64,000 nt of DNA from Dehalococcoidia bacterium (GTDB taxonomy: Bacteria > Chloroflexota > Dehalococcoidia > Plut-88900): contig CBDBLV010000002.1 of the NCBI GenBank assembly GCA_965207225.1, forward strand, positions 192,001 through 256,000. Direction: 5' to 3'. Positions 8,249 to 63,918 of the stretch are shown piece by piece. Position 1 is the first letter of the stretch. Each line of letters starts with the position of its first letter. Below the pieces are notes generated by a model. The model made no database searches, was not told the DNA's origin, and saw only the letters and a program-made list of their open reading frames with translations. Made by a program: the position numbers and the translations under genes.

Positions 8249-8277
8249 AGTCTATCCGCGCACCTGGGGAATGTCAA
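8249..8277 (-). promoter_or_regulatory. Putative sigma70 promoter for cofGH
   Basis: TTGACA-17 nt-TAGACT on minus strand. Confidence 0.55.
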
Positions 8278-8343
8278 ATGACCGGGGGCCGGGCTATTCG
8301 GTTGTGGGGGTGGGGTTTTGATTGTTCTTTCGGGTTTTGGGTC

Positions 8344-8673
8344 GGCGATGGAAGGTCCGGGACTCAGGCGCAGGGGGGCGGGTATGCCTGCCCTGCGGAT
8401 ATTCGGCGGGTCTATGGTTAGGTGAACGGGTCAGGCAGTCCACCATAGAGGTTGAACCACCGAAAGAGCGGGCAAAGCCCGCCAGAGTCGTCGTGGTAGA
8501 CGCCAGAGGAATCCGACTTATCGACGGGATTCCCAACAAGGCCTGTTGCGGCCTTCAGACGTGCCGACAAGGTCAATGCCGGTGGCGTAGATGCGGTTCT
8601 TGCGGTATCCGCACAGACGGCATGCTCTTTCAAAGAGAGTGCACCGTAAGAGTATTGTGGACCTTCCATCGCC
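8344..8673 (-). ncRNA. Putative structured ncRNA, copy 1 of a three-member family
   Basis: Perfect 15-bp inverted repeat GGCGATGGAAGGTCC (8344-8358 / 8659-8673) enclosing multiple hairpins; homologous to 17291-17599 and 62631-63041. Confidence 0.6.
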
Positions 8674-8901
8674 TGGATGGATGGGGAAGGGGCACGGGAC
8701 CCGTGGTGAGGAGACAACACTCTTAGCTTGAGCCTCGGGCCTGCGCGAGGGCCGTTGGGATGGGCCAGGGCGTTGAGTCCCCCGACCCCCGACTGCTCGG
8801 GGGCAGGCTTTCTCGGGGGCGATGCCTTGGGTCGGGTCTCGGGGCTTCCCTGGGTTTTTGGTTCCTCCTTGTGTTACTGAATTTCTGTTCGAACGCAGGA
8901 T

Positions 8902-8930
8902 ATGATAGTACGGTCGGACAGATGTGTCAA
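8902..8930 (-). promoter_or_regulatory. Sigma70 promoter upstream of element copy 1
   Basis: TTGACA-17 nt-TATCAT; nearly identical at 17114-17142. Confidence 0.7.
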
Positions 8931-8973
8931 GGGCAAATGTGCGGCTTTTTGGGGAGAATATCCCCCCGGTCCT

Positions 8974-9125
8974 CCCCAAGGGAACCCTCACCCCCTTGGT
9001 CCCTCTCTCCCCCGTATCGGAGTACGGGGCAGGCTCAGGGCCTATAAGGGAGAGGGGGAGAGGAGAACAGAGGCCCGCGTGGGTGCGACGCACCCACGCG
9101 GGCCTCTAGTTCAGTACTGGGGGAG
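8974..9125. repeat. ~150-bp palindromic cassette; inverted copy at 62159-62310, partial copy at 63461-63540
   Basis: Shared CCCAGTACTGAACTAGAGG...GTGGGTGC/GCACCCAC...CCCTCTCCCTT...GGGGGTGAGGGTTCCC. Confidence 0.85.
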
Positions 9126-9169
9126 GGATGGTTCGGTTTTGAAGGAGCGATCCAAGTCTTAGCGTGTAT

Positions 9170-9620
9170 GGCGGACAGGGTACCCACGAGGGGCACCCCT
9201 ACAGGGAGGGATAAATATGAGTCCCACCCGCCCGCCCTGTTTTATTTGAATTATCAGAAATGCTGCCAAGCAGCATTTCTGATAATTCGTTACCAGGGGG
9301 GATGTCAGGAAGAAGTGAGAGTGGCAAGGATTGGGGTAGGGTTAAGGAGGGGCGCTTGAGATTCCTCGCGGAGCCTCGGGATGACAAGAGGGGAAGGTGG
9401 TTGTTGGTGATGGAAGGGCGAGACGGGTTGACAAGGTGTGGGGCACCCCCCGCTGCCCCGGGATCACCCTCACCCCAGCCCTCTCCCGTCGAGGGAGAGG
9501 GGGTAAGGACACCCCACCCAACCCCGCAGGATGGATTCCGGCTCGGGGGCCGGAATGACGGGAGGAAGGGGGTCGGAATGATGGGAAAGGAAGGTTGGGA
9601 TGGTAGGAGGGTTGGGTGTG
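9170..9620. repeat. Mosaic of REP-like short palindromes
   Basis: GTAG-GGGTGCCC/GGGTACCC (minus), 19-bp perfect hairpin 9248-9288, TGTCATCCCGAGG...GAG(G/A)ATCTC unit shared with 63062 and 63242, CCCTCTCCC...GGGAGAGGG. Confidence 0.7.
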
Positions 9621-10963: not shown

Positions 10964-11971
10964 CTAGCTGAATAGGAAGCCTTCTTTGAGGGGGTCCCGG
11001 GGGTCGATGAGGAACTGGTGGGAACCGGTTATGTATGCCGAACCTGTAACCTCCGGTATCACCGCCGGATAGCCGTCCACCCTTCCCTCCTCCACAATCC
11101 TGCTCTTGAATACCGTGCCCAGTATGCTTTCGTTGACGAACTCCTCGCCGATGCCTATGCGGCCCTGAGCGTGAAGGAGGGCGAGTCGGGCGGAGGTGCA
11201 GGTACCGCAGGGCGACCTGTCGAAGGAGCTCTGGGCGAAGACCATCATGTTGCGGGCATGGATGCCGGGTGAAGGGTTGTCGACGTACATGATGACACCA
11301 TGCAGGGGGCTAATCCCGGCCTCGGTGGGGTGGCTGATTTCGAGCTGGTCCAGGGCGGCGTCCCGGAAAGCGATGCCGCGCTCCACAAGCCGGTTAACGT
11401 TGCCCGGCACAAGCTCCAACCCCAGCCGCTCCACGGGGAGGACCGCATAGAAATTACCGCCGTAGACGATGTCGGCAAGGACCTTGCCGCCTTGGAAATC
11501 GACTTGGACATCCTGCATATAGACAAAGGATGGCACGTTTCGCAACGTTATTTCCTTGACGTTGCCATCGTGGTCCACGGCGGCTCGGGCGTGGACCGTG
11601 CCACTCACAGTGTCGAGCCGCACCTCGGTATAGGGATGGACGGGGGTGATCCAGCCGGTCTCGATGAGGGTGGTAACGATGCCGATTGTGCCGTGACCGC
11701 ACATTCCCTGAAAGTCGAGGGAGTCCATAAACAGAACGCCGATATCGCTGTCTTCGTTAACCGGGGCCGTGATGACTGCGAGGATGATCTCCGCATTGCC
11801 GCGAGGCTCGAGAGTTAGGGCTTTCCAAACGGAGCCCAGATTTTTGGAAAAGAACTCACGCTTGTCGGCCATGGTCGGGCCCGGGATGTGGGGAATGCCG
11901 CCGGTGATCATGCGGGTGCGTTCGCCCGCAGTGTGGGAATCGATGGTGGAAATTACTCTCTGAGTCTTCAC
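10964..11971 (-). CDS. Proline racemase/hydroxyproline epimerase family (paralog B)
   Basis: DSHTAGE, MCGHG, DRSPCGTCTSAR. Confidence 0.9.
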   Translation of the reverse strand: MKTQRVISTIDSHTAGERTRMITGGIPHIPGPTMADKREFFSKNLGSVWKALTLEPRGNAEIILAVITAPVNEDSDIGVLFMDSLDFQGMCGHGTIGIVTTLIETGWITPVHPYTEVRLDTVSGTVHARAAVDHDGNVKEITLRNVPSFVYMQDVQVDFQGGKVLADIVYGGNFYAVLPVERLGLELVPGNVNRLVERGIAFRDAALDQLEISHPTEAGISPLHGVIMYVDNPSPGIHARNMMVFAQSSFDRSPCGTCTSARLALLHAQGRIGIGEEFVNESILGTVFKSRIVEEGRVDGYPAVIPEVTGSAYITGSHQFLIDPRDPLKEGFLFS

Positions 11972-11991
11972 TGCCCCTCAACCAGTTCCTT

Positions 11992-12999
11992 CTAACCCAG
12001 CAGGAAACCCTCTTTGAGCGGGTCCCGGGGGTCGATGAAGAACTGGTGGGAGCCGGTCAGGTACGCCGAGCCCGTGACCTCCGGCACGATTGCCGGATAG
12101 CCGTCCACCCGACTCTCCTCTACTATCCGGCTTCGGAAGACCGTGCCGAGAATGCTTTCGTGGATGAACTCTTCGCCCACGCCGATTCTGCCCTGGGCGT
12201 GAAGAAGGGCCAGCCGGGCGGAGGTGCCGGTGCCGCAGGGCGACCTGTCGAAGGAATGCTGGGCAAAGGTCATGATGTTGCGGGCATGAATGCCGGGGGA
12301 GGGGTTGTCGACGTACATCTCGACACCGTGCAGGGGGTTGATTCCGGGCTCGGTGGGATGACTGATTTCAAGCTGGTCCCGAGCGGCGTCCCGGAAAGCG
12401 ATGCCGCGCTCCACGAGCCTGCCGACATTGCCGGGGGCCAGCTCCAGGCCCAGACGCTCCACGGGCAGAATCGCAAAGAAGTTTCCGCCGTATACGATGT
12501 CCGTCAGGACTTTCCCTCCGTCGAAGTCGACCTGGGCGTCCTGCATGTAGACGAAGGATGGGACGTTACGCAGTGTCACTTCCTTGACGTTGCCCTCGTG
12601 GTCCACGGCGGCCCGGGCGTACACCGAGCCGGTCAGGGTGTCGAGCCGCACCTCGGTATAGGGATGGACGGGGGTGATCTGGCCGGTCTCGATGAGCGTT
12701 GTGACGATGCCGATTGTGCCGTGGCCGCACATGCCTTCGAAGCCGAGGGAGTCCATGAACATAACGCCGATATCGCTGCCTTCGTTCACGGGATCGGTAA
12801 TCACTGCGACGATGATCTCGGCATCTCCGCGGGGCTCTAGGGTGAGGACCTTGCGGACGAAATCCAGGTTTTGGGAGAAGAACTCCCGCTTGTCGGCCAT
12901 GGTCGGGCCCGGGATGTTGGGGATGCCGCCGGTGACCATGCGCGTGCGTTCGCCCGCGGTGTGGGAATCTATGGTTGAGATAATCCTCTGAGCCTTCAT
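11992..12999 (-). CDS. Proline racemase/hydroxyproline epimerase family (paralog A)
   Basis: DSHTAGE, MCGHG, DRSPCGTGTSAR; start set at ATG 12999 by alignment to paralog B. Confidence 0.9.
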   Translation of the reverse strand: MKAQRIISTIDSHTAGERTRMVTGGIPNIPGPTMADKREFFSQNLDFVRKVLTLEPRGDAEIIVAVITDPVNEGSDIGVMFMDSLGFEGMCGHGTIGIVTTLIETGQITPVHPYTEVRLDTLTGSVYARAAVDHEGNVKEVTLRNVPSFVYMQDAQVDFDGGKVLTDIVYGGNFFAILPVERLGLELAPGNVGRLVERGIAFRDAARDQLEISHPTEPGINPLHGVEMYVDNPSPGIHARNIMTFAQHSFDRSPCGTGTSARLALLHAQGRIGVGEEFIHESILGTVFRSRIVEESRVDGYPAIVPEVTGSAYLTGSHQFFIDPRDPLKEGFLLG

Positions 13000-13100
13000 G
13001 ACCCTGCCCCCGATGCCAAGTGTGGGGCCATTGTACAACAGGCGCGGGTGATAATATGAGGTCGGGTTTCGGCCCCAGACCAGGAGCAAGGAGAGTCGTC

Positions 13101-16973: not shown

Positions 16974-17113
16974 GCCGGTCTCGCGGGTTGGGCATAGGTG
17001 GCTATGCGGGCCATCGTTTCCCCCTCACCCTGGCTCTCTCCCGGTCTATGCACCTCCCAGGGAAAGGGTTAAGGGGAGAGCTCACTCTCCCCTCATAAGC
17101 CGCACATTTGCTC

Positions 17114-17142
17114 TTGACACACCTGTCCGACAGTACTATCAT
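17114..17142 (+). promoter_or_regulatory. Sigma70 promoter upstream of element copy 2
   Basis: TTGACA-17 nt-TATCAT. Confidence 0.7.
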
Positions 17143-17290
17143 ATCCTGCGGTCGAACAAATATCTGATAATAAAAGGAGGAACCAAAACCCCGGGGAGGC
17201 CCGAGCACGACCCAGAGGATGTAACCCCCGAGACGTCGGGGACGCCATCTCCTCACCCCACGGGTCCCGTGCTCCTTCCCCATCCATCCA

Positions 17291-17599
17291 GGCGATGGAA
17301 GGTCCACAACATTAAACGGCACGCTCCTCACTTAGGAGCCCTGCCGAAAAACCTCGGGCCTTATGGCCCTTGGAAAAATCTCCCCCGTCGTTCCCCTCGG
17401 AGATTCCCATTAACCCAGCGACGGCAGCGAGAAAACACCTCCCCACCCCTCCGAGTGGGTCAGGAAAACTGAGAAACTGGTGGTAGAGACGCCCTCAGGC
17501 GAGGTCTCCTCGCTTGTCTGCCATGTGACACAGGAACACGGGGCTGAACCAGGCTGGCCTCCCGCCCCCTGAAAACCGAGTCCCGGACCTTCCATCGCC
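17291..17599 (+). ncRNA. Putative structured ncRNA, copy 2
   Basis: Identical 15-bp closing stem GGCGATGGAAGGTCC (17291-17305) / GGACCTTCCATCGCC (17585-17599); flanks homologous to copy 1. Confidence 0.6.
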
Positions 17600-17789
17600 G
17601 ACCCCCTCCAAAACAGACAGAACGAAAATGAAAACCCCACAACTGAATAGGAACCCGGCGCATCACCAACCAGCCCAACCAGCGCAGCATATAGCGTTCC
17701 ACCCGGCTAAGGAGTACCATTACGCAGGCCCCAATTCTGCCAACCCCATGACAGGACCCAGACCCGTGAGCAGCCGGTAGGAGACACCC

Positions 17790-18956
17790 ATGGAGTACAA
17801 GATCATATCTGCGGACACCCACCTGGACACCGCTTGGCTTCCCGGCGACCTCTTCACCGATAACGCCCCCGCTCACCTCAGGGACAAGATGCCCTACGTG
17901 ACCGAGGGCAAGCACGGCGGCAAGGTCTGGGAGATCGGGGGTGAGTACATGTGCGGCGCGGGCGTCGGGGGCAACCTCACGCAGGACTTTGCCGCCTACG
18001 TCCCCGGCCAGTCCCATCACCTTGACCGCATGGCTGAGGTCGGCTTCTTCGAAGGCCAGGAGGACGGCATCTACCACCCCTCCGACCCCGAGCTCCGCAT
18101 CAAGGACCAGGACATAGACGGCGTGGACGCCGAGGTGGTCTACGGCATCCTTGGAATTGGCGGAGGCGGTTTTTCCGGGCCTGGTTTCAGGGACTTTGAG
18201 GTCACCACCGCCATCTACGACGTTTACAATAAATGGGTTTCCGACCTGTTTCGACCATACTCCAACCGGATAGCGGGCCTCGGGTGCCTCAGCAGCCACG
18301 ACCCCGATGTGGCCGCCCGGCAGCTCAGGGACTGCGCCGGCCTGGGCCTCCGCGGCGCCGAGATCAACGCCGGCAAGATGCCCGACCCCGCCTACCACAA
18401 GGCATGGGAGCCCCTGTGGCAGGCCGCGTCCGACACCCAGATGCCCATTTCCTTCCACACCCTGGGCTATCCCCACCGCACCCCCGCCCCCGAGGACCAG
18501 GACGAATATGGAAGGCTGGACATGGGTCTTCGCTTCATCATGTTTCAGCTATCCGGCATCGAGTTCCTGGTGAGCATGGTCCTCTCCGGCGCCTGCGTAC
18601 GCCACCCCGATTTCCAGTTCGTGCTCGGCGAGTGTGGCATCGGCTGGATCCCTTACGTAATTGAGAGGACTGACCTCAAGTACGATGACCGGCTGTTCCA
18701 TCTCGGCTTCGATATGAAGCCCAGCGATTACTGGCGCAGACAGGGATACTCGACCTTCCAGCAGGAGTACGTCTCCACCGATGAGGTCGAGCGGATCGGC
18801 GTTGACAACATCATGTGGGGCTCCGACTACCCTCACCCCGACGGCGTCTTCCCCGATTCCGCCAGGGCCATAGACGAGGGTCTTGGGCACCTGGATGCAG
18901 CCATTCGGCAGAAGCTGATTTGCGACAACGCCGCCAGGGTGTACAAGTTCAACTAG
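17790..18956 (+). CDS. Amidohydrolase_2 family metal-dependent hydrolase/decarboxylase
   Basis: ISADTH, PISFH, GECGIGW, MWGSDYPH. Confidence 0.9.
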   Translation: MEYKIISADTHLDTAWLPGDLFTDNAPAHLRDKMPYVTEGKHGGKVWEIGGEYMCGAGVGGNLTQDFAAYVPGQSHHLDRMAEVGFFEGQEDGIYHPSDPELRIKDQDIDGVDAEVVYGILGIGGGGFSGPGFRDFEVTTAIYDVYNKWVSDLFRPYSNRIAGLGCLSSHDPDVAARQLRDCAGLGLRGAEINAGKMPDPAYHKAWEPLWQAASDTQMPISFHTLGYPHRTPAPEDQDEYGRLDMGLRFIMFQLSGIEFLVSMVLSGACVRHPDFQFVLGECGIGWIPYVIERTDLKYDDRLFHLGFDMKPSDYWRRQGYSTFQQEYVSTDEVERIGVDNIMWGSDYPHPDGVFPDSARAIDEGLGHLDAAIRQKLICDNAARVYKFN

Positions 18957-19011
18957 CCGAAATGCAAGGTCGATGCCCCTGCAACGCGCTGGCAGACACT
19001 AGGAGAGGAAT

Positions 19012-20166
19012 ATGAAATACAGCCTGATTTCCGCCGACACCCACATGGACCTCGTCTACATGCCCCCAGAGGTCTTCGTTGAGAATGCCCCATCGCACCT
19101 CAGGCACATGATGCCTCACGTAGAGGACACCGACGACGGGCCCTTCTGGATGCAGCAAGGAGACAGGGTAGTGCCTTCAGGGTTTGGTGGCCTGAACAGC
19201 GGAGAGTACAAGGAGGGCGAGGAACTGCACCTGGACCGCATGGCTGAAGTCGGCTTCTTCGACAGCATTGGGGAGGGTATTTTCCACCCCAGCAACCCCG
19301 ACCTCCGGGTCAAAGACCTCGATATTGACGGCGTCGACGCCGAGATGATGTATGGAATCCTGGAGATTGGCGCGGGCGGGCGCCTCGGCCCCGACGTTGA
19401 AGACGCAGGCGTCCTTGAAGCCACCTATGAGGTCTACAACCAGTGGGTCGCCGAATTCGTCGGCAAGAACCCCACCCGCATGAACGCCCTCGCCTGTCTC
19501 ACCCACCGGGACCCCCAGACCGCCGCCGACCAGCTCCGCAAAGCCGCCGAGCTGGGCCTCCGTGGCGCGGAGATACTCGTCCCCCCGATGATTAAGCCCG
19601 TCTACCACAAGGACTGGGATGTCTTGTGGCAGGCCGCCGCCGAGTGTCGGGTCCCCATCTCCTTCCACACCCTCGGCGGCCAGTTCTCCAGGCCCAAACC
19701 CGGTGAGGAGCAGGAGTACAAATACGTAGTCAGGGGGCTGGGCGAAGCTCTGTTTCAGATCGCCGGCTCCGAGTTCCTGATCAGCGTAATCCTATCCGGC
19801 GCATGCGAGAGGTTCCCGGACTTCAACTGGGTCCTCGGCGAATGTGGCATCGGTTGGATACCCTACATCGTCGAAAGGACCGACATAGAATACGACGACC
19901 GGCTGTTCCAGCTAGGGCTGGAGATGAAGCCCAGCGACTACTGGCGCCGCCAGGGCCATTCCACCTTCCAGGACGAATACGTCTCCATGGACGAGGTGGA
20001 GAGAATTGGCGTGGACTCCATCATGTGGGGCTCCGACTACCCCCACCCCGACGGCGTCTTCCCCGACTCCCGGGCCGTCATCAAGAAAAACCTCGGGCAC
20101 CTGCCGGATGAAATAGTCAGCCAGATCACCTGCGACAACGCCGCCAAGCTCTACCGCTTCAATTGA
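19012..20166 (+). CDS. Amidohydrolase_2 family protein (tandem paralog)
   Basis: ISADTH, PISFH, GECGIGW, MWGSDYPH. Confidence 0.9.
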   Translation: MKYSLISADTHMDLVYMPPEVFVENAPSHLRHMMPHVEDTDDGPFWMQQGDRVVPSGFGGLNSGEYKEGEELHLDRMAEVGFFDSIGEGIFHPSNPDLRVKDLDIDGVDAEMMYGILEIGAGGRLGPDVEDAGVLEATYEVYNQWVAEFVGKNPTRMNALACLTHRDPQTAADQLRKAAELGLRGAEILVPPMIKPVYHKDWDVLWQAAAECRVPISFHTLGGQFSRPKPGEEQEYKYVVRGLGEALFQIAGSEFLISVILSGACERFPDFNWVLGECGIGWIPYIVERTDIEYDDRLFQLGLEMKPSDYWRRQGHSTFQDEYVSMDEVERIGVDSIMWGSDYPHPDGVFPDSRAVIKKNLGHLPDEIVSQITCDNAAKLYRFN

Positions 20167-25803: not shown

Positions 25804-26934
25804 GTGGGAGACTACAGGATTATTTCATCTGACAATCATATAGTTGAACCCCCGGACCTGTGGACCGAGAGGCTGCCTGCTGAATATAAGGAACGCGGCC
25901 CTACGGTTAAGCACACTCCCGATGGACCCTTCTGGCACATCGATGGGCAGCCCCATTTCAACATCTTTGCTATGGGTGCACAGCCCGGCGACAGGTTGGA
26001 AGGAGACGGCAGGCTGGACCAGGTCGTGGACTGGGAAGAAGTCCGCCCAGGCGCCTACATTGGGGAAGAGGCGGTAAAGGACATGGACATAGACGGCCTG
26101 GACGTCGGCCTGGTGTACCCGAGTCTCACGATCTTCCTCTACCCCTTCGTGGAAGACACTAGCCTCCTGAATGCCATTGATAGTACATACAATGACTTCG
26201 CCGCTGAATTTTGTCAGGCCAACCCCAGACGCCTGAAGGGTGTCGCAGTCGTCAACATCGACAACATTGAAGAAGGTGTCGAGGAAATCAAGAGGTGCGT
26301 GAAGAAGGGATTTGTAGGGGTAACAATCCCTGAATACATGGCAGCCAAGAGCTACCGCTCCCGAGACTACGACCCACTCTGGGCTTGTGCCCAGGACCTG
26401 GATATCCCGCTCACGTTCCACATCTCCACGGCCAGGGTACAGGCGGGTCGGGGGTGGGACCGAGACCTGCTTGACCCCTTCGACTTCGCCAACTTCCTCC
26501 TACACAACGCCGACTTCTGGGTGCGGGTATCCCTTACCGAGGTTATCCTTAGCGGCGTCTTCGAACGCTTCCCGAAGCTGAAGATTGGTGTTGCGGAGCA
26601 TGAACTCAGCTGGATCCCCTACTGGCTGGAGCGTATGGACTTCAGCTACAACGACAGGGCCGCCGGCCAGGACGGATACCGCATACCGGGTGACCTGGCC
26701 CCCAGCGATCTCTTCCATTCCAACTGCTTCGCCGACTTCCAGGAGGACGCCCTGGGCATCCAGAACAGGGACATAATAGGCGTGGACAACATCCTCTGGG
26801 GCTCCGATTACCCCCACTCCGAGGGCACTTGGCCCAAGTCCCGAGAGTTCATCGAGACAACCCTCGCCGACTGCACCGATGAAGAAAGGGCCAAACTGGT
26901 CGGTGGCAATACGGCCAGGATCTACAACATCTAA
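25804..26934 (+). CDS. Amidohydrolase_2 family protein
   Basis: ISSDNH, PLTFH, LWGSDYPH. Confidence 0.9.
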   Translation: MGDYRIISSDNHIVEPPDLWTERLPAEYKERGPTVKHTPDGPFWHIDGQPHFNIFAMGAQPGDRLEGDGRLDQVVDWEEVRPGAYIGEEAVKDMDIDGLDVGLVYPSLTIFLYPFVEDTSLLNAIDSTYNDFAAEFCQANPRRLKGVAVVNIDNIEEGVEEIKRCVKKGFVGVTIPEYMAAKSYRSRDYDPLWACAQDLDIPLTFHISTARVQAGRGWDRDLLDPFDFANFLLHNADFWVRVSLTEVILSGVFERFPKLKIGVAEHELSWIPYWLERMDFSYNDRAAGQDGYRIPGDLAPSDLFHSNCFADFQEDALGIQNRDIIGVDNILWGSDYPHSEGTWPKSREFIETTLADCTDEERAKLVGGNTARIYNI

Positions 26935-26973
26935 AGGCTCTACGGCTTCGCAGAAGGGGGAGTTCAGGGGCGG

Positions 26974-28623
26974 ATGACAAATCACAGGAGCAACGGATCG
27001 AGTGAGTGGGACGCCATCGTAGTCGGGGGCGGTCACAACGGTCTCGTTTGCGCTGCGTATCTCGGCAAGGCCGGCCTCCGGGTCCTCGTCCTCGAGTCTC
27101 GTGAAGTCTTCGGGGGCCCCAGCGGCAGCTTTGAATTCATGCCCGGCTACACTGCCAGCTTCTCCAACTCACCGGGCTCCCTCGAGACCAGGGTAGTGGA
27201 GGAGCTCGACCTTGCAGACGCCGGACTCCGCTTCCTTCGCTCCGACCCCACGGTAATCCAGTTCTTCCCCGAACATCCCTTCGTCGTGTGGCGGGACATG
27301 AACAGGGTATGTGCCCAGCTCGACGCCCTCTGCCCCGGCGAGGGTAACCGATACCGCGGGTTCGTCGCCAAGCTGGAGGACTTCGCCACCAAGCTGAGGA
27401 CCTCGATTTTCAGGCCGGCGCCCGGCCTCGCCTACATGGCCGCTGGCCTTACATCAGACGAAGACAAAGATACGTTCGATCAAGTATTCCACGGCAGCCT
27501 GAGCGAGATTCTCTACAGGCACCTCAGGACCAACGAGGCCCGCACCCTGCTCGGCCTTCTCGCTTCCAACTCCGGCATGGTCCCCCAGTCGGCGCCCGGC
27601 ACCGCTACCGGCCTCATCCTCCGCCCCCTGGCCCTCGCATCCGCAGCTTCCCTACCCAGCGACGATTTTCGACGCATGCCCCTCCGCGGCTCCACGGGGC
27701 ACCCCATCGGCGGTATGGGCGCGATTATTGATGCGATAACGGCCCGCTGCCGAGGCTTCGGAGGGAGCCTTAAACTCGACACCCGGGTTGCACGAATACT
27801 TCACTCCGGAGGTCGGGCCCGCGGCGTAGAATGCGAGAACGGCGCGGTCTACACCGCACCCATAGTAGTATCCGCCATCAACCCCAAGACTCTATTCGGC
27901 AAGCTGCTGGACGACGATGCCGTTGGCTCGCAGATGAGGGATGAAGTCAGCCGAATCCCGATGCGCGGCGCAGCCTTCAAGATGGCCCTCGCATTAGACG
28001 GGGTACCTTCCTATGCGGGTCTCCCTGATGATCTCTCCCAAGAACAGGCTTCAACCTGCCAGATACGTGTTGCCGCATCGATGGAGCACATCGAGGAGTC
28101 CACTGTCGGCGCCATAGCCGGGTACCCTTCTGAAACTCCGATAATTTGGGGCCTCATCCCCTCCGTCGTTTCCCCAGACTTGACCCCTACCGGCAAGCAC
28201 ATAATGAGCTGGAATATCTGGCACGCCCCCTACGATCTGGCTGAAGGTACATGGGACGAGGAAAAAGACAAGTTCGCCAAGCGGTGCATAGAGACCGTGA
28301 CCCGCTACATGCCAGACCTACCGGACCACATCATCGACTATCGAGCCTTCAGCCCCTTGGACTGCGAAGCCGAATTGGGCATCATAGGCTCCAACATCAC
28401 CCACGGCGAAATGCTTCCCCACAACCTCTTCGGCCCCAGACCCCACCGCCTTGCCAACGACTACCGCACTCCCCTCAAGGGCCTCTATCTTACGGGTGGA
28501 GGCGTATGGCCGGGTGGTTTTGTCACCGGCGTCCCGGGCCGCAACACCAGCCAGGCGGTGCTGGCCGACCTCCGATGGGAACAGGATCGCTCAGCACCTC
28601 TCGCCGAAGCAGTGACCGGCTAG
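26974..28623 (+). CDS. Phytoene-desaturase-like FAD-dependent oxidoreductase
   Basis: VGGGHNGL, GGMGAI, YRTPLKGLYL.G...PGG.VTG.PG.N. Confidence 0.88.
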   Translation: MTNHRSNGSSEWDAIVVGGGHNGLVCAAYLGKAGLRVLVLESREVFGGPSGSFEFMPGYTASFSNSPGSLETRVVEELDLADAGLRFLRSDPTVIQFFPEHPFVVWRDMNRVCAQLDALCPGEGNRYRGFVAKLEDFATKLRTSIFRPAPGLAYMAAGLTSDEDKDTFDQVFHGSLSEILYRHLRTNEARTLLGLLASNSGMVPQSAPGTATGLILRPLALASAASLPSDDFRRMPLRGSTGHPIGGMGAIIDAITARCRGFGGSLKLDTRVARILHSGGRARGVECENGAVYTAPIVVSAINPKTLFGKLLDDDAVGSQMRDEVSRIPMRGAAFKMALALDGVPSYAGLPDDLSQEQASTCQIRVAASMEHIEESTVGAIAGYPSETPIIWGLIPSVVSPDLTPTGKHIMSWNIWHAPYDLAEGTWDEEKDKFAKRCIETVTRYMPDLPDHIIDYRAFSPLDCEAELGIIGSNITHGEMLPHNLFGPRPHRLANDYRTPLKGLYLTGGGVWPGGFVTGVPGRNTSQAVLADLRWEQDRSAPLAEAVTG

Positions 28624-28721
28624 CGGTCACCGCCTTCTAGCCCCGACGCCCTATAGCCTCCATCCCCGACCGTCTTTACAATACCGACCATTACGGTAAA
28701 CTTTCCCTTCGTTCCCATTCT

Positions 28722-28812
<91 letters not shown>

Positions 28813-28899
28813 CCCGATAAACGACCCTAAGCCCCTCGGCCCCAGACCCCCGTACCTGAATCAGTTCGCAATGTCAGCCACTAATGTCTTGAAAGGGAT

Positions 28900-30051
28900 A
28901 TGGTGCCGCCCATGCCCATAACTAGCTTGATTTCCGCAGATTCCCACGTAGTTGAGCCCCCTGACCTTTGGCAACTCCGCATCGATGACAAATTCAAAGA
29001 CGCCGCTCCGAGGCTCGTCGAGTACGACGGCGTACATCGTTGGGTTGTAGGTGGAGACGTGAACCTGGGCTCCCTGGGCGCTCCTTCCCAGGCGGGCCGC
29101 CGGTATTCCGGGCTTGAAGGCCTCGGACTCGGCGCCCGTATGGAAGAAGTCCCCGAGGCTTCATACGACCCTGCAGCGAGACTGGAAGCTATGGCTGTCG
29201 ACGGCGTCGAGGCTGAAGTGGTCTACTCTACCATCGGCACCAGAATCTATACGTCAACAGTCGGTGGGGAGTTGATGTCCGCGTGCTTCCGAGCGATGAA
29301 CGATTGGTCAGCGGAGTTCGTAGAGGCCTATCCCCAAAAGCTAGCCGGGACAGCCTTGATCAACATCGAAGACGTGGATGATGCTGTAACCGAGCTTGAG
29401 AGGTCCGCCCGACTCGGCCTGCGCGCAGCAGCCATACCCACCTACCCCGGCGACGAGGCGCCTTACCGAATGCCGTCATATGACAAGTTTTGGGATGCCG
29501 CTCAGCGCCTGGGCATCCCTCTTGGAATGCACGCCGGCTCCGAGCGCCCGGGGCCCGGTAGGTTCAGCATCGGCGATTTTGTGATGCCGGAGCAGAAGTC
29601 CGGCGACGCCTCTTTCAGGTCCACCTATCACTATTGGGCGATGCGCTCTGTCGCAGACATGGTATTCGCAGGAGTCTTCGAGCGATACCCGGACCTCCGG
29701 CTTGCCGTTGTGGAGCACGATGTCGGCTGGGCGCCCCACTTCATTCGCCGCATGGATATGACTTACGCAGAGCACCGCTATGTCACCGAAATCCACTTCG
29801 ATAACGACGCCCTCCCCAGCGACTTCATCCGCCGCAACGTCTACTTCACCTTCATGGAAGACCCGATATTTGTGCCGCTGCTTTCCTTTGTGGGCGCTGA
29901 TAGGGTAATGTGGGGGTCGGACTACCCCCATCGGGAATCGACTTGGCCCAGGTCTCGCCAAGTGCTGGACCAGGTGCTCCAATACCTTTCGGATGAAGAG
30001 CGAAGACGGATAACTCACACCAATGCCGCAGAACTCTATGGATTGGGATAA
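28900..30051 (+). CDS. Amidohydrolase_2 family protein
   Basis: ISADSH, PLGMH, MWGSDYPH. Confidence 0.9.
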   Translation: MVPPMPITSLISADSHVVEPPDLWQLRIDDKFKDAAPRLVEYDGVHRWVVGGDVNLGSLGAPSQAGRRYSGLEGLGLGARMEEVPEASYDPAARLEAMAVDGVEAEVVYSTIGTRIYTSTVGGELMSACFRAMNDWSAEFVEAYPQKLAGTALINIEDVDDAVTELERSARLGLRAAAIPTYPGDEAPYRMPSYDKFWDAAQRLGIPLGMHAGSERPGPGRFSIGDFVMPEQKSGDASFRSTYHYWAMRSVADMVFAGVFERYPDLRLAVVEHDVGWAPHFIRRMDMTYAEHRYVTEIHFDNDALPSDFIRRNVYFTFMEDPIFVPLLSFVGADRVMWGSDYPHRESTWPRSRQVLDQVLQYLSDEERRRITHTNAAELYGLG

Positions 30052-61635: not shown

Positions 61636-62120
61636 CTGTCATCCCGCTTCCGACCGGGAGTTCACCCTATCCTTTTTCGTCATTCCCGACTCCGATCGGG
61701 AATCCATCCCGCGGGGCGAGGGTTCCGTTCGCCCTGAGCAAAGTCGAAGGGTCGACCGAACGGAATGGGGTGGTGCCCGGTTCCCGTAGGGGCGACCGGC
61801 GGGTCGCCCTCCCCGGTCCGGGGCCGCTCGTGCTGAGACCCTCGAAGTATGAGCGAGAGGCGGCCCACGCCTTGCCAACCCGTCTCATCCCTCCATCACC
61901 AACCACCCTTTCTCACCTTCCCATTCCGATGCCCCGCGAGGAATCTGGGGCTGGCAGGAGGCTGGCCCTCTCCCCCGAGCAGTGGGGCCGCTCACCCTGA
62001 GCGACGAGTCGAAGGGTCGAGCGGGGAGGGGTGGCCCAAGCCTCTCCAAACCATCACCTCAGTCTGCCGTCAACCCACACCCCTCACTGTCATTCCGATG
62101 CCCCGCGATGAATCTAGGAC
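61636..62120. repeat. Mosaic of REP/dRS3-like palindromes
   Basis: GTCATTCCCGACTCCGATCGGGAATCC (again at 63613), CCCTGAGC...GTCGAAGGG x2, GTAGGGGCGACCGGCGGGTCGCCC, GGGCCGCTC...GGCCCA (again at 63652), CATTCCGATGCCCCGCGA.GAATCT x2. Confidence 0.8.
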
Positions 62121-62158
62121 TTGCCCGCTCACGCCCTTTATCTCCTTCTCCCTTTCTC

Positions 62159-62310
62159 TCCCCAGTACTGAACTAGAGGGCTACGTGGGTGCGCAGCACC
62201 CACGTAGCCCTCTGTTCTTCTTCCCCCTCTCCCTTAAAGGCCCTAAGAGCCTGCCCCGAGTCCCTCGAGGGGGAGAGGGGGATCAAGGGGGTGAGGGTTC
62301 CCCCGTGGGG
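62159..62310. repeat. Palindromic cassette, inverted homolog of 8974-9125
   Basis: Direct sequence comparison. Confidence 0.85.
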
Positions 62311-62345
62311 CCGAGGGGCATTCCATCCCCAAGAAGATCGGACAT

Positions 62346-62374
62346 TTGCCCTACCTGAACCCCCGTGCTATACT
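62346..62374 (+). promoter_or_regulatory. Sigma70 promoter upstream of element copy 3
   Basis: TTGCCC-17 nt-TATACT with extended -10 TG; overlaps the ACATTTGC motif that precedes the -35 in copies 1 and 2. Confidence 0.6.
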
Positions 62375-62630
62375 ACGCCCCAGGCCGCCGACCTCACTCC
62401 TCGGCGACCATCACAATGCAGGATCAAAGGAGTCCCATGAGCCGCACCGGCCTACATAGGCCCCGTCTCAGCCGAGCAGCATCCCGCCGCCCGGCCCCCG
62501 GCACGCGCCTCCTCCCAGGCTCCTTTCTCTTTCCACACCCCGTCCTGCACCCCAACACTCACTACAAGCGCTGCCCAAAGGCCCAACGTCTCGGCCTTCG
62601 CAGCGATCAATCACCGCCCCGCCCCATGCA

Positions 62631-63041
62631 AGGAAGGTCCCCGGACAAATCACGGCACGTCCTATTCAAGGGCCGTTGCCAGGTGCGCGCCCCACTCATA
62701 GGGCGCAACGGTTTCGCCCCGTCAGGCGACGCTAAGGAGCACGGTGTAATGTTGCTCCATCGGGCCATCGCGCCCTTCTTGGATTCCACCGTCGTCACCA
62801 TCGGCAAGTTCCGGTCTACGAACGGCGGTCACGGGTCCATGCTCTCACCCCTTGGGGTGCTAGAGCGCTTCCGGTGGTCGAGGCTGCCCCAGAGCGAGAG
62901 TTTCTCGCGTCTCGTCCACATCCCCTCGGAAGTGTGGGGCTGTCGCAGGGTCGACGCTGGTGTGGACCGTCCCCAGGGGCAGACACCCCGCATCGGTACA
63001 GGCGTCGCCGACATCCTGCGCAAACCGTCCGGGACCTTCCT
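62631..63041 (+). ncRNA. Putative structured ncRNA, copy 3 (divergent)
   Basis: AGGAAGGTCCC(C)GGAC (62631-62646) pairs with GTCCGGGACCTTCCT (63027-63041); first hairpin begins ACGGCACG as in copy 2. Confidence 0.5.
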
Positions 63042-63047
63042 CCCCCT

Positions 63048-63407
63048 CCCCCGACTTGCCATGTCATCCCGAGGCCCCGCGAGGGATCTCAAGGGCCCGT
63101 CTCAAGACGTGGCATTCACCACCGTTCACCCCCATCCAACTTCAGGGAGTGTAAGGGGTGCAGCTTCCCGTACCCTGGAGGAATGGGCTGGCATGAGGCT
63201 GATGCCCTCCCCTCCCACCAGTACCAACCCCCGATTTGCTATGTCATCCCGAGGCCCCGCGAGGGATCTCAAGCGCCCGCCTCAAGACATGGCATTCACC
63301 GCCGTTCACCCCCATCCAACTTCAGGGAATGTAAGGGGTACAGCCTCCCGTACCCTGAAGGAATGGGCTGGGATGAGGCTGATGTCCTCACCTCCTACCA
63401 GAACCAA
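63048..63407 (+). repeat. Tandem duplication, two units of 180 bp
   Basis: ATGTCATCCCGAGGCCCCGCGAGGGATCTCAAG at 63061 and 63241; period exactly 180. Confidence 0.92.
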
Positions 63408-63918
63408 ACTAGGGGCAAGCGCCTGTGCCAGGGCACAGGCGCTTGCCCCTGTTTTTCCTTCCCTCTCTCCCTTAAAGGCCCTGAGAGCCTGCCCCGAGTC
63501 CCTCGAGGGGGAGAGCAGGATAAAGAGGGTTAGGGTTCCCCTCTCGTTCCTTAAACAATCAAAGGCGTGCCTGAAACCGGAAAACAATCAAAAGCCCGCC
63601 CCCTCCCCTTCGTCATTCCCGACCCCGATCGGGAACCCACCCCCGGGGGCTGGGCCGCTCGTGCTGAGGCTCTCGAAGTACGAGCGGAGGGGTGGCCCAC
63701 ACCCGACCGTCACGTCTCGCTGGTCATCCTCGCCCACCCCATGCCGTCGTCTCCCCCACAGCGCCACGCGAAATCCCCCAAAACCCCTTTAGGCGTCGTT
63801 CAATCAAACCAGCCACGAATTCAATCAACGTTCAATCAAAACCCCACCCCCCGTCGAGGGAGAGGGTCGGAGCATCCCCCCAAGAAGCCGCCGGGTGAAG
63901 GTTCCCATTTGACCCCGT

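Follow-up and report, generated by a model that had tools for sequence, protein, structure and literature searches.

How do two non-coding units in one stretch of DNA come to share their ends and differ in their middles? The question is raised by two copies of an element that lie in the window, as we call the whole stretch of 64,000 nucleotides that was analysed: copy 2 at 17095-17665 on the plus strand and copy 1 at 8295-8945 on the minus strand. Three flanking segments are common to both. An earlier note on this DNA had described these segments as closely alike and the interiors as far more diverged, and both descriptions hold. The promoter-leader segments are 86% identical (100/116 aligned columns), the hairpin with the 5' arm 98% (59/60 aligned columns) and the 3' arm with the tail 90% (60/67 aligned columns; 67% when gaps are counted), and the interiors (268 and 289 nt), aligned directly, score 15 against 10.8 +/- 10.6 in 200 shuffles, which is chance level. 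Uniform identity was not seen, and the note was right that this is not a neutrally decaying duplication, the flanks being alike and the interiors exchanged between the arms.

Copy 2 begins with a sigma-70-type promoter of the type that we call PA (TTGACA-17-TATCAT; 17114..17142, +), and the promoter of each window copy matches the consensus at 11 of 12 positions. The promoter spacer of copy 2 holds a LexA-box-like site (17125..17136, +) with one mismatch to GWAC-N4-GTWC. The leader (17149..17258, +), whose length varies among copies, carries a Shine-Dalgarno-like AAGGAGG at 17174-17180 with no start codon behind it; a motif of this kind stands behind the element promoter, and it is followed by a start codon in no copy of the family. 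A short palindrome (17259..17271, +), conserved in the alignment and the family comparison, precedes the stem. The stem is a perfect 15-bp inverted repeat, its arms lying at 17291..17305 and 17585..17599 (+), that closes the interior in the predicted folds of both copies, which are strong (z -5.3 for copy 2 and z -3.6 for copy 1). The enclosed interior (17306..17584, +) is rich in hairpins and non-coding, with stops in all three frames, and the 3' arm is followed by an A/C-rich unstructured tail (17600..17649, +; family composition A 46%, C 39%, G 11%, T 5%). Downstream is a co-oriented gene (17790..18956, +, by our own gene calling) whose product we take to be amidohydrolase-like.

Copy 1 has the same parts on the minus strand: a PA promoter (8902..8930), recognised by the consensus and by an operon-promoter profile, a leader ~80 nt longer than that of copy 2, the 5' stem arm (8659..8673), recognised by fold and sequence, the interior (8359..8658), and the 3' stem arm (8344-8358) with the A/C-rich tail, which together span 8295..8358. 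The promoter of the next host gene (8249..8277, -), a gene that is presumably cofG-like, begins 17 nt past the tail and is also present in the genomes G001 and G002, which have no element there. A palindromic repeat that we take to be REP/BoxC-like (17017..17082, +; recognised by its sequence and by genome-wide matches) stands before copy 2, and such arrays precede most copies. Long mosaics of such palindromes also occupy 8960-9600 and 61650-63550 of the window; they fill intergenic regions genome-wide, although no RAYT gene was found in the host genome. The window further holds several paralogous genes at 17790-20166 and 25804-30051, which we assume to be amidohydrolase-like, and a tandem gene pair at 10964-13089, presumably proline-racemase-like.

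The two copies belong to a large family. The host genome (G000; 4.03 Mb, 92% complete) contains 47 motif clusters, 42 of which count as complete elements; these measure 200-555 nt from stem to stem and fall into 12 interior classes. Copy 1 belongs to class 6, with 2 copies, and copy 2 to class 1, whose 14 copies are 91-97% identical to it, a multiplicity that does not suit the note's idea of a variable cargo. Three main promoter types are mixed across the interior classes. All 8 of the genomes searched in this genus contain the element, and 0 of 32 others do. An exact 26-nt element pattern occurs in the GTDB collection at 33 places on six chromosomes, all of them Dehalococcoidia bacterium, a 22-nt pattern had no match among viral contigs, and the covariance models of Rfam 15 gave no match at the gathering threshold in the window, copy 2 or 9 other copies. 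An rRNA leader or processing stem was considered and rejected, as a genome-wide search found no scaffold beside the one 16S gene or the one 23S gene. One element (C1:66973-69715) is split by an insertion of ~2.6 kb, which we take to be of the IS21 type, with the promoter parted from the stem; the gene behind it is presumably uvrA.

The source of the interiors can be read from the third family member in the window (62353..63040, +). The fourth promoter type, PD, led to sister elements that retain an ATG and an open frame, and this one has a PD promoter, a Shine-Dalgarno sequence, an ATG and a frame resembling TerL codons 196-364 (E 8e-59). The frame continues from the terL fragment through REP-like arrays (62353-63792), including a 180-nt tandem duplication (63048-63407). 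It has 905 longer homologues, of which many among those listed are ~460 aa long. Nine full-length homologues were tested: four score above the Pfam Terminase_6C cut-off and all nine match PHROG large-terminase families. Four terL-fragment frames gave no match in Pfam or PHROG, so that only the full-length homologues are recognised. The predicted structure of a TerL homologue has a mean pLDDT of 57, with the nuclease half mostly at 70-90 and the ATPase half at low confidence; the best Foldseek matches of the model are large-terminase nucleases (E 5.4e-7), and a sequence-only PDB search found nothing. The nuclease fold and the portal and capsid neighbourhood together identify the parent gene as a large terminase.

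A DNA profile built from 17 terL genes of the genus matches 28 of the 42 elements at E<=0.042, every match falling inside codons 226-374, with a best E of 0.25 in the reversed genome that served as control; copy 1 is found at E 1.6e-8 (codons 229-367) and copy 2 at E 7.9e-4. Compared with terL on their own, the interiors reach z 11 and 8.8 (copy 2) and z 6.5 and 5.8 (copy 1). Together with the arms, the window interiors score 101 and 139 against terL (shuffles 12 +/- 10 and 19 +/- 13) and 15 against each other. Both terL alignments are colinear and the deletions differ between the copies: class 1 is a relic of the nuclease domain with two large deletions, and class 6 retained other parts of the gene. 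Because both interiors are colinear with terL though mutually unalignable, they have one common ancestor, and the difference between them is, judging from these alignments, one of separate divergence and deletion from a single ancestral coding stretch. The stem arms correspond to terL codons ~229-233 and ~362-366, and by eye the inverted repeat can be seen in those terL genes of the genus that were listed and not in three terL genes of other genera. The arms and 28 of the 42 interiors almost certainly derive from terL. Fourteen interiors with a second stem type (AAGACGC) gave no terL profile match, the best E of a second-round profile being 0.26, and unrelated cargo in these is possible. A search of the host genome with nine of them turned up no insertion-sequence ends. 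A profile of the operon promoter matches 15 of the 42 elements at E<=0.1, with 0 matches in the reversed control; copy 1 is found at 2.4e-4 and copy 2 is not among the matches listed. The copy-2 promoter (17114..17142) is, as far as its sequence tells, related to that of the terS-X-terL operon. A descent of the leader from terL codons 180-232, apparent by eye, is not supported by the profile, which gave 0 matches.

The earlier note had drawn a functional suggestion from the constant flanks, a guide- or template-like RNA. Spelled out, a constant scaffold would present a variable guide or template, as foreign cargo, to a nuclease, recombinase or reverse transcriptase, as in retrons, DGRs, bridge RNAs and omega RNAs. 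The exchangeable interiors within constant flanks, the 14 interiors without terL similarity and the four reverse transcriptase genes of the host genome are what such a system would display. The window interiors, however, are terL relics in multi-copy classes, both colinear with the same host terL segment. No targets were found in phages, plasmids (searched with copy 2), viral contigs or the rest of the host genome, the best being a 26-nt match at E 0.08, and tblastx of the interiors returned only low-complexity noise among the matches listed. Two of the reverse transcriptase genes were read; they look like, and we take them to be, group II intron proteins, and they were not found beside elements. 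No partner enzyme gene adjoins the elements, whose neighbours are unrelated host genes. We consider a guide or template role very improbable, and for the two window copies largely refuted. The two reverse transcriptase genes that were read carry a C-terminal HNH-like part.

A second suggestion of the note, that interiors are exchanged and that orthologous loci of relatives would reveal it, proved well founded. The comparison was made with a close relative (G008), whose flanking DNA is 88-98% identical to that of the host genome and in which 36 elements were examined; four sister-type matches lay outside this set, and no element passing the filter was found there at 9 of 35 loci (two of them full terL cassettes) and at 1 of 20 further loci. 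All 36 elements lie at sites that are occupied in the host genome, 31 of them recognised through the downstream gene, 3 through the upstream gene and 2 matched to sister-type elements, and at 16 of the 31 orthologous sites the interior belongs to a different class. Promoter type differs at the same site between species in the same way. At the copy-1 site, G000, G008, G005 and G007 have four different interiors; the tails behind these are alike, and all four species have the same host promoter there. The orthologue of copy 2 in G008 is of the same class with another leader and 5' sub-module, identity being 52-74% there versus 86-100% from 17366 on. From these comparisons it is very likely that the elements are exchanged in place, and the route we infer is gene conversion via the conserved flanks, which would account for uniform flanks around a shuffled middle.

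The same sites can also be read as those of a MITE-like non-autonomous transposon that is still hopping, targeted beside host promoters and moved in trans, possibly by the RNase H-fold nuclease of TerL, so that different interiors at one site would be independent insertions. The copy number is high, as such a transposon would have it, and a host -35 box stands at a fixed distance of 41-43 nt past the tail in 7 of 11 scorable cases. The sites of extra full terS-X-terL cassettes, of which G005 and G007 have four full cassettes each, differ among species. Two G005 sites have no counterpart in the host genome and the copy-1 site has none in G001 and G002, where the element is absent and the region is rearranged; in these cases the junction lies a few bases before the -35 box. 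Yet both G005 sites are at synteny breaks, as is every empty site seen, and clean empty sites number 0 among the 36 G008 copies. The inverted repeat is internal and not terminal, no target duplication was found at the element sites compared, and a search of the 92% complete host genome for a RAYT transposase (Y1, PF01797) gave 0 matches, the control being found in 6 of 14 genomes. When 45-nt tails were compared, the orthologue ranked first of 42 at 5 of 16 swapped sites (0.4 expected) and at 9 of 15 unswapped ones, and such retention of a site-specific tail through a swap speaks against fresh insertion; at 9 of the 16 swapped sites the orthologue fell outside the top three, as re-insertion at a preferred site might leave it. 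We hold hopping to be rather unlikely as the source of the pattern and prefer exchange in place.

What the elements descend from is a packaging operon. The host genome has two full terS-like/X/terL cassettes. One precedes a portal gene, 12 kb from the major head gene, in a head module (C5:227100-243400) that is split by host genes into a part with terS-like, X, terL and portal genes and a part with scaffold-like, capsid and structural genes. The other (C1:232700-235100) lies near a gene that we take to be rpmH, and in other species it faces either the same gene or a neighbouring one. In the class, terL was found in 109 of 151 genomes, and outside the genus 88 of 102 have a single match. Each genome of the genus contains 1-4 full terL genes; its terL matches number 11-34, and the fragments mostly cover residues ~193-375. 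A capsid gene is present in 4 of 5 genomes tested. Since terL is class-wide, mostly single and accompanied by a capsid gene, the pattern is that of a host-inherited gene-transfer-agent-like module, and from its genes we infer a putative head and packaging module of this kind. No description of such a class-wide module in Dehalococcoidia was found in the literature searched.

The operon has dispersed relatives other than the elements. Eleven genes have an element-type promoter end, and their core matches the first TerS-like gene of the operon (E 8e-7 to 8e-4; next match 0.63). They lie at C4:181034 (-), C5:672978 (+), C5:1272907 (+), C5:941751 (-), C5:1137858 (-) and six more places of the host genome, and their ~350-470 codons comprise the TerS-like core and disordered repeats. 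The label TerS-like is based on the position before terL; in the ESM Atlas the protein has only Chloroflexota clusters, with a small-terminase family at 0.80, which is a lead only. Of the five TerS-like genes that were read, four terminate in one common stretch, RIARGRPPP, as does the fifth when a later start is taken; the stretch seems to us reminiscent of ribosome-arrest motifs. With such proteins encoded in the genome, the elements could act as DNA, as dispersed pac-like packaging starts for a gene-transfer-agent-like particle that are recognised by the TerS-like proteins and stand beside housekeeping genes, with RNA folding secondary. Descent from a packaging operon whose promoter end was kept, the 11 TerS-like genes with the same promoter end and a strong orientation bias of the elements all accord with this. 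At pac sites it is TerS that determines where packaging begins (PMC7947584), and packaging of host DNA is directed by pseudo-pac sites (PMC10996546); RcGTA is described as lacking discrete packaging starts (PMC7947584, PMC10996546). The elements, however, have retained coding sequence of terL, and none is matched by the terS portion of the operon profile; the covariation, with its G-U pairs, indicates an RNA made from the promoter's strand, and the module that would use the sites is known here from its genes. Packaging starts are accordingly quite improbable.

Conservation of pairing was examined in two classes. In class 3 (17 sequences), 10 of 120 pairs are changed on both sides, a number reached in 0-1 of 500 shuffles and inflated somewhat by relatedness. 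In class 1 (29 sequences), 99.4% of cells are paired, base changes preserve pairing via G-U, and variation is lower in paired columns (0.028) than in unpaired columns (0.104); compensatory double changes are absent from this class and the shuffle control was not beaten (202 of 500), the structure being derived from the same sequences. The interiors of ten copies, folded on their own, give z -0.9 to -6.6 (copy 2, -2.4). The terL segments of the genus themselves fold at z -1.6 to -3.9, and part of the folding of the element is therefore inherited. In one RNA run, three short contigs lie on copy 2 at ~88-95% identity, which allows no assignment to copy, strand or level and may come from DNA contamination; at a share of 0.06 the run is of no use for ranking expression, and the parts that it leaves uncovered are uninformative. 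The element is likely to be transcribed into a folded RNA.

An RNA of this kind might work in trans, as a decoy or sponge for TerS, TerL or a host factor, its position merely marking where strong promoters are tolerated. Its own strong promoter, the closed fold, the structural conservation and the dozen classes kept across species would suit a trans-acting family. Beyond the stem, however, the interiors have no common fold or motif, 90% of the copies face the next gene, and no intrinsic terminator was found after the tail on the element's strand. We regard action in trans as improbable.

Several features direct attention to the gene that follows. Of 41 copies, 37 point toward the next gene where 59% would be expected (p 1.3e-5; own gene-calling script); the test on tandem gaps used 16/19, and a recount gives 17/20. 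The genes next to elements include, as we name them, rpoB, gyrB, recA, uvrA, leuS, glnS, rpsO and nusA. Many downstream genes own a promoter and hence do not need the element. Of 40 element promoters, which are not independent of one another, 26 have the LexA-like box with one mismatch and 0 have a perfect box; among 478 other promoter-like sites the box is found in 15. It is also found in 12 of 21 terL-operon promoters and absent in 9 of them. The consensus was taken in part from the motif upstream of the host's own lexA. Transcription of the elements is possibly raised after DNA damage, to judge from these sites. At the other end, the A/C-rich tail, which is predicted to be unfolded, resembles a Rho loading site. 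Rho loads on C-rich unfolded RNA, and RNase III cuts long stems; genes that we take, by their motifs, to be rho and rnc are present in the host genome. A role in cis, in which the element adds a promoter, maybe a damage-responsive one, with a structured leader that tunes read-through into the next gene, is on these grounds the likeliest of the functions considered, though somewhat short of probable.

Overall we lean toward terL-derived cassettes of promoter and RNA that sit in fixed slots and are reshuffled by recombination. Most Dehalococcoidia would have one phage-type head and packaging module (terS-like, X, terL, portal, capsid), passed on as host genes are. Pieces of the packaging operon would have multiplied in this genus, and one line of copies would have lost translation while retaining terL codons ~229-367 and a promoter of the operon type. 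The retained piece of terL would then have become a folded RNA with a 15-bp closing stem, followed by the A/C-rich tail. Interiors, promoters and sometimes whole units would be swapped by homologous recombination, the leader with the 5' arm and the 3' arm with the tail serving as crossover tracts, and this swapping would homogenise the flanks and shuffle the middle. The copies would be transcribed, possibly more after DNA damage, and the tail, resembling a Rho loading site, and the stem, resembling an RNase III substrate, may set read-through and RNA stability before a housekeeping gene.

The element shares properties with several known systems. Putative mobile promoters and other promoter-bearing repeats (Correia, ERIC, REPIN) are recognised by an identity of 80% or more across 50 nt or more in front of unrelated genes (PMC3575422); here the values are 86% over 116 nt for the promoter segment and 90% over 67 nt for the arm with the tail. 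As with mobile promoters, similar promoter-bearing non-coding sequence stands before unrelated genes of one genome, but the element promoter is farther upstream than their window of -150 to -50 (PMC3575422). The element also differs from them in its length of 0.5-0.8 kb, its origin from a phage-type coding gene, its large folded domain in a dozen classes, and in that its site is fixed and its parts are exchanged. MITEs and REPINs, too, are non-coding and numerous, arise by deletion from a larger unit that bears a gene, and have an inverted repeat. The elements resemble them in these respects and in the REP-like palindromes nearby, but the 15-bp repeat is internal, ~175 nt from the 5' end and ~50 nt from the 3' end, and consists of terL codons, and the parent is a terminase operon and not a transposase. 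The only full-length relatives of the elements found were terS-X-terL cassettes, Y1 being the one IS family surveyed.

Constant flanks that are homogenised around a swapped middle are known from gene-conversion cassettes (pilE/pilS, vlsE) and from the concerted evolution of rRNA operons. Unlike pilE/pilS and vlsE, the family has no silent store with a single expression site; ~50 promoter-bearing non-coding slots exchange mutually. The parent of the elements resembles gene transfer agents in being a host-inherited terminase-portal-capsid module, whereas the elements are amplified terminase fragments serving as dispersed RNA cassettes, of which the literature searched showed no example. The large RNAs OLE, GOLLD, ROOL and HEARO are several hundred nt long and multi-hairpin, have their own promoter and in some cases are multicopy. 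The element RNA is like them in length, hairpins and promoter, and unlike them is restricted to one genus, has a traceable origin in a coding gene and matches no Rfam model. No description of such an element family was found in the mostly open-access literature searched. What appears to be new is the combination of promoter-bearing repeats that originate from a coding gene with the in-place exchange of RNA modules, the function of the element being a prediction from sequence.

The family offers a traceable path from a phage gene to a large folded RNA family, one genome containing the gene in intact form, fragments of it with an open frame, and non-coding classes more or less remote from it. 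Between two close species, about one site in two received another RNA module and is still occupied, many of the sites lying before core genes; recombination may therefore rewire or diversify regulation. The family also leads to a gene-transfer-agent-like module that spans Dehalococcoidia as a class and has been little described. A bolder reading, which we think unlikely but set down, is that the genus turned a phage packaging operon into a genome-wide set of ~70 promoter slots of the DNA-damage type, comprising ~50 structured RNAs that can be exchanged, 7 frames with terL fragments, 11 proteins resembling small terminases, and full cassettes to spare; as functional modules, the RNAs would be redistributed among housekeeping genes, and/or the slots would direct the gene-transfer-agent-like machinery to the packaging of those genes. 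If true, nature would here provide an example of coding sequence giving rise to large RNAs and of cassette exchange rewiring regulation. As a separate observation without bearing on origin, a 74-nt piece of the class-7 interior stands alone in intergenic DNA of the host genome (C3:216515-216588), beside what we take to be the relic of a cation-efflux gene.
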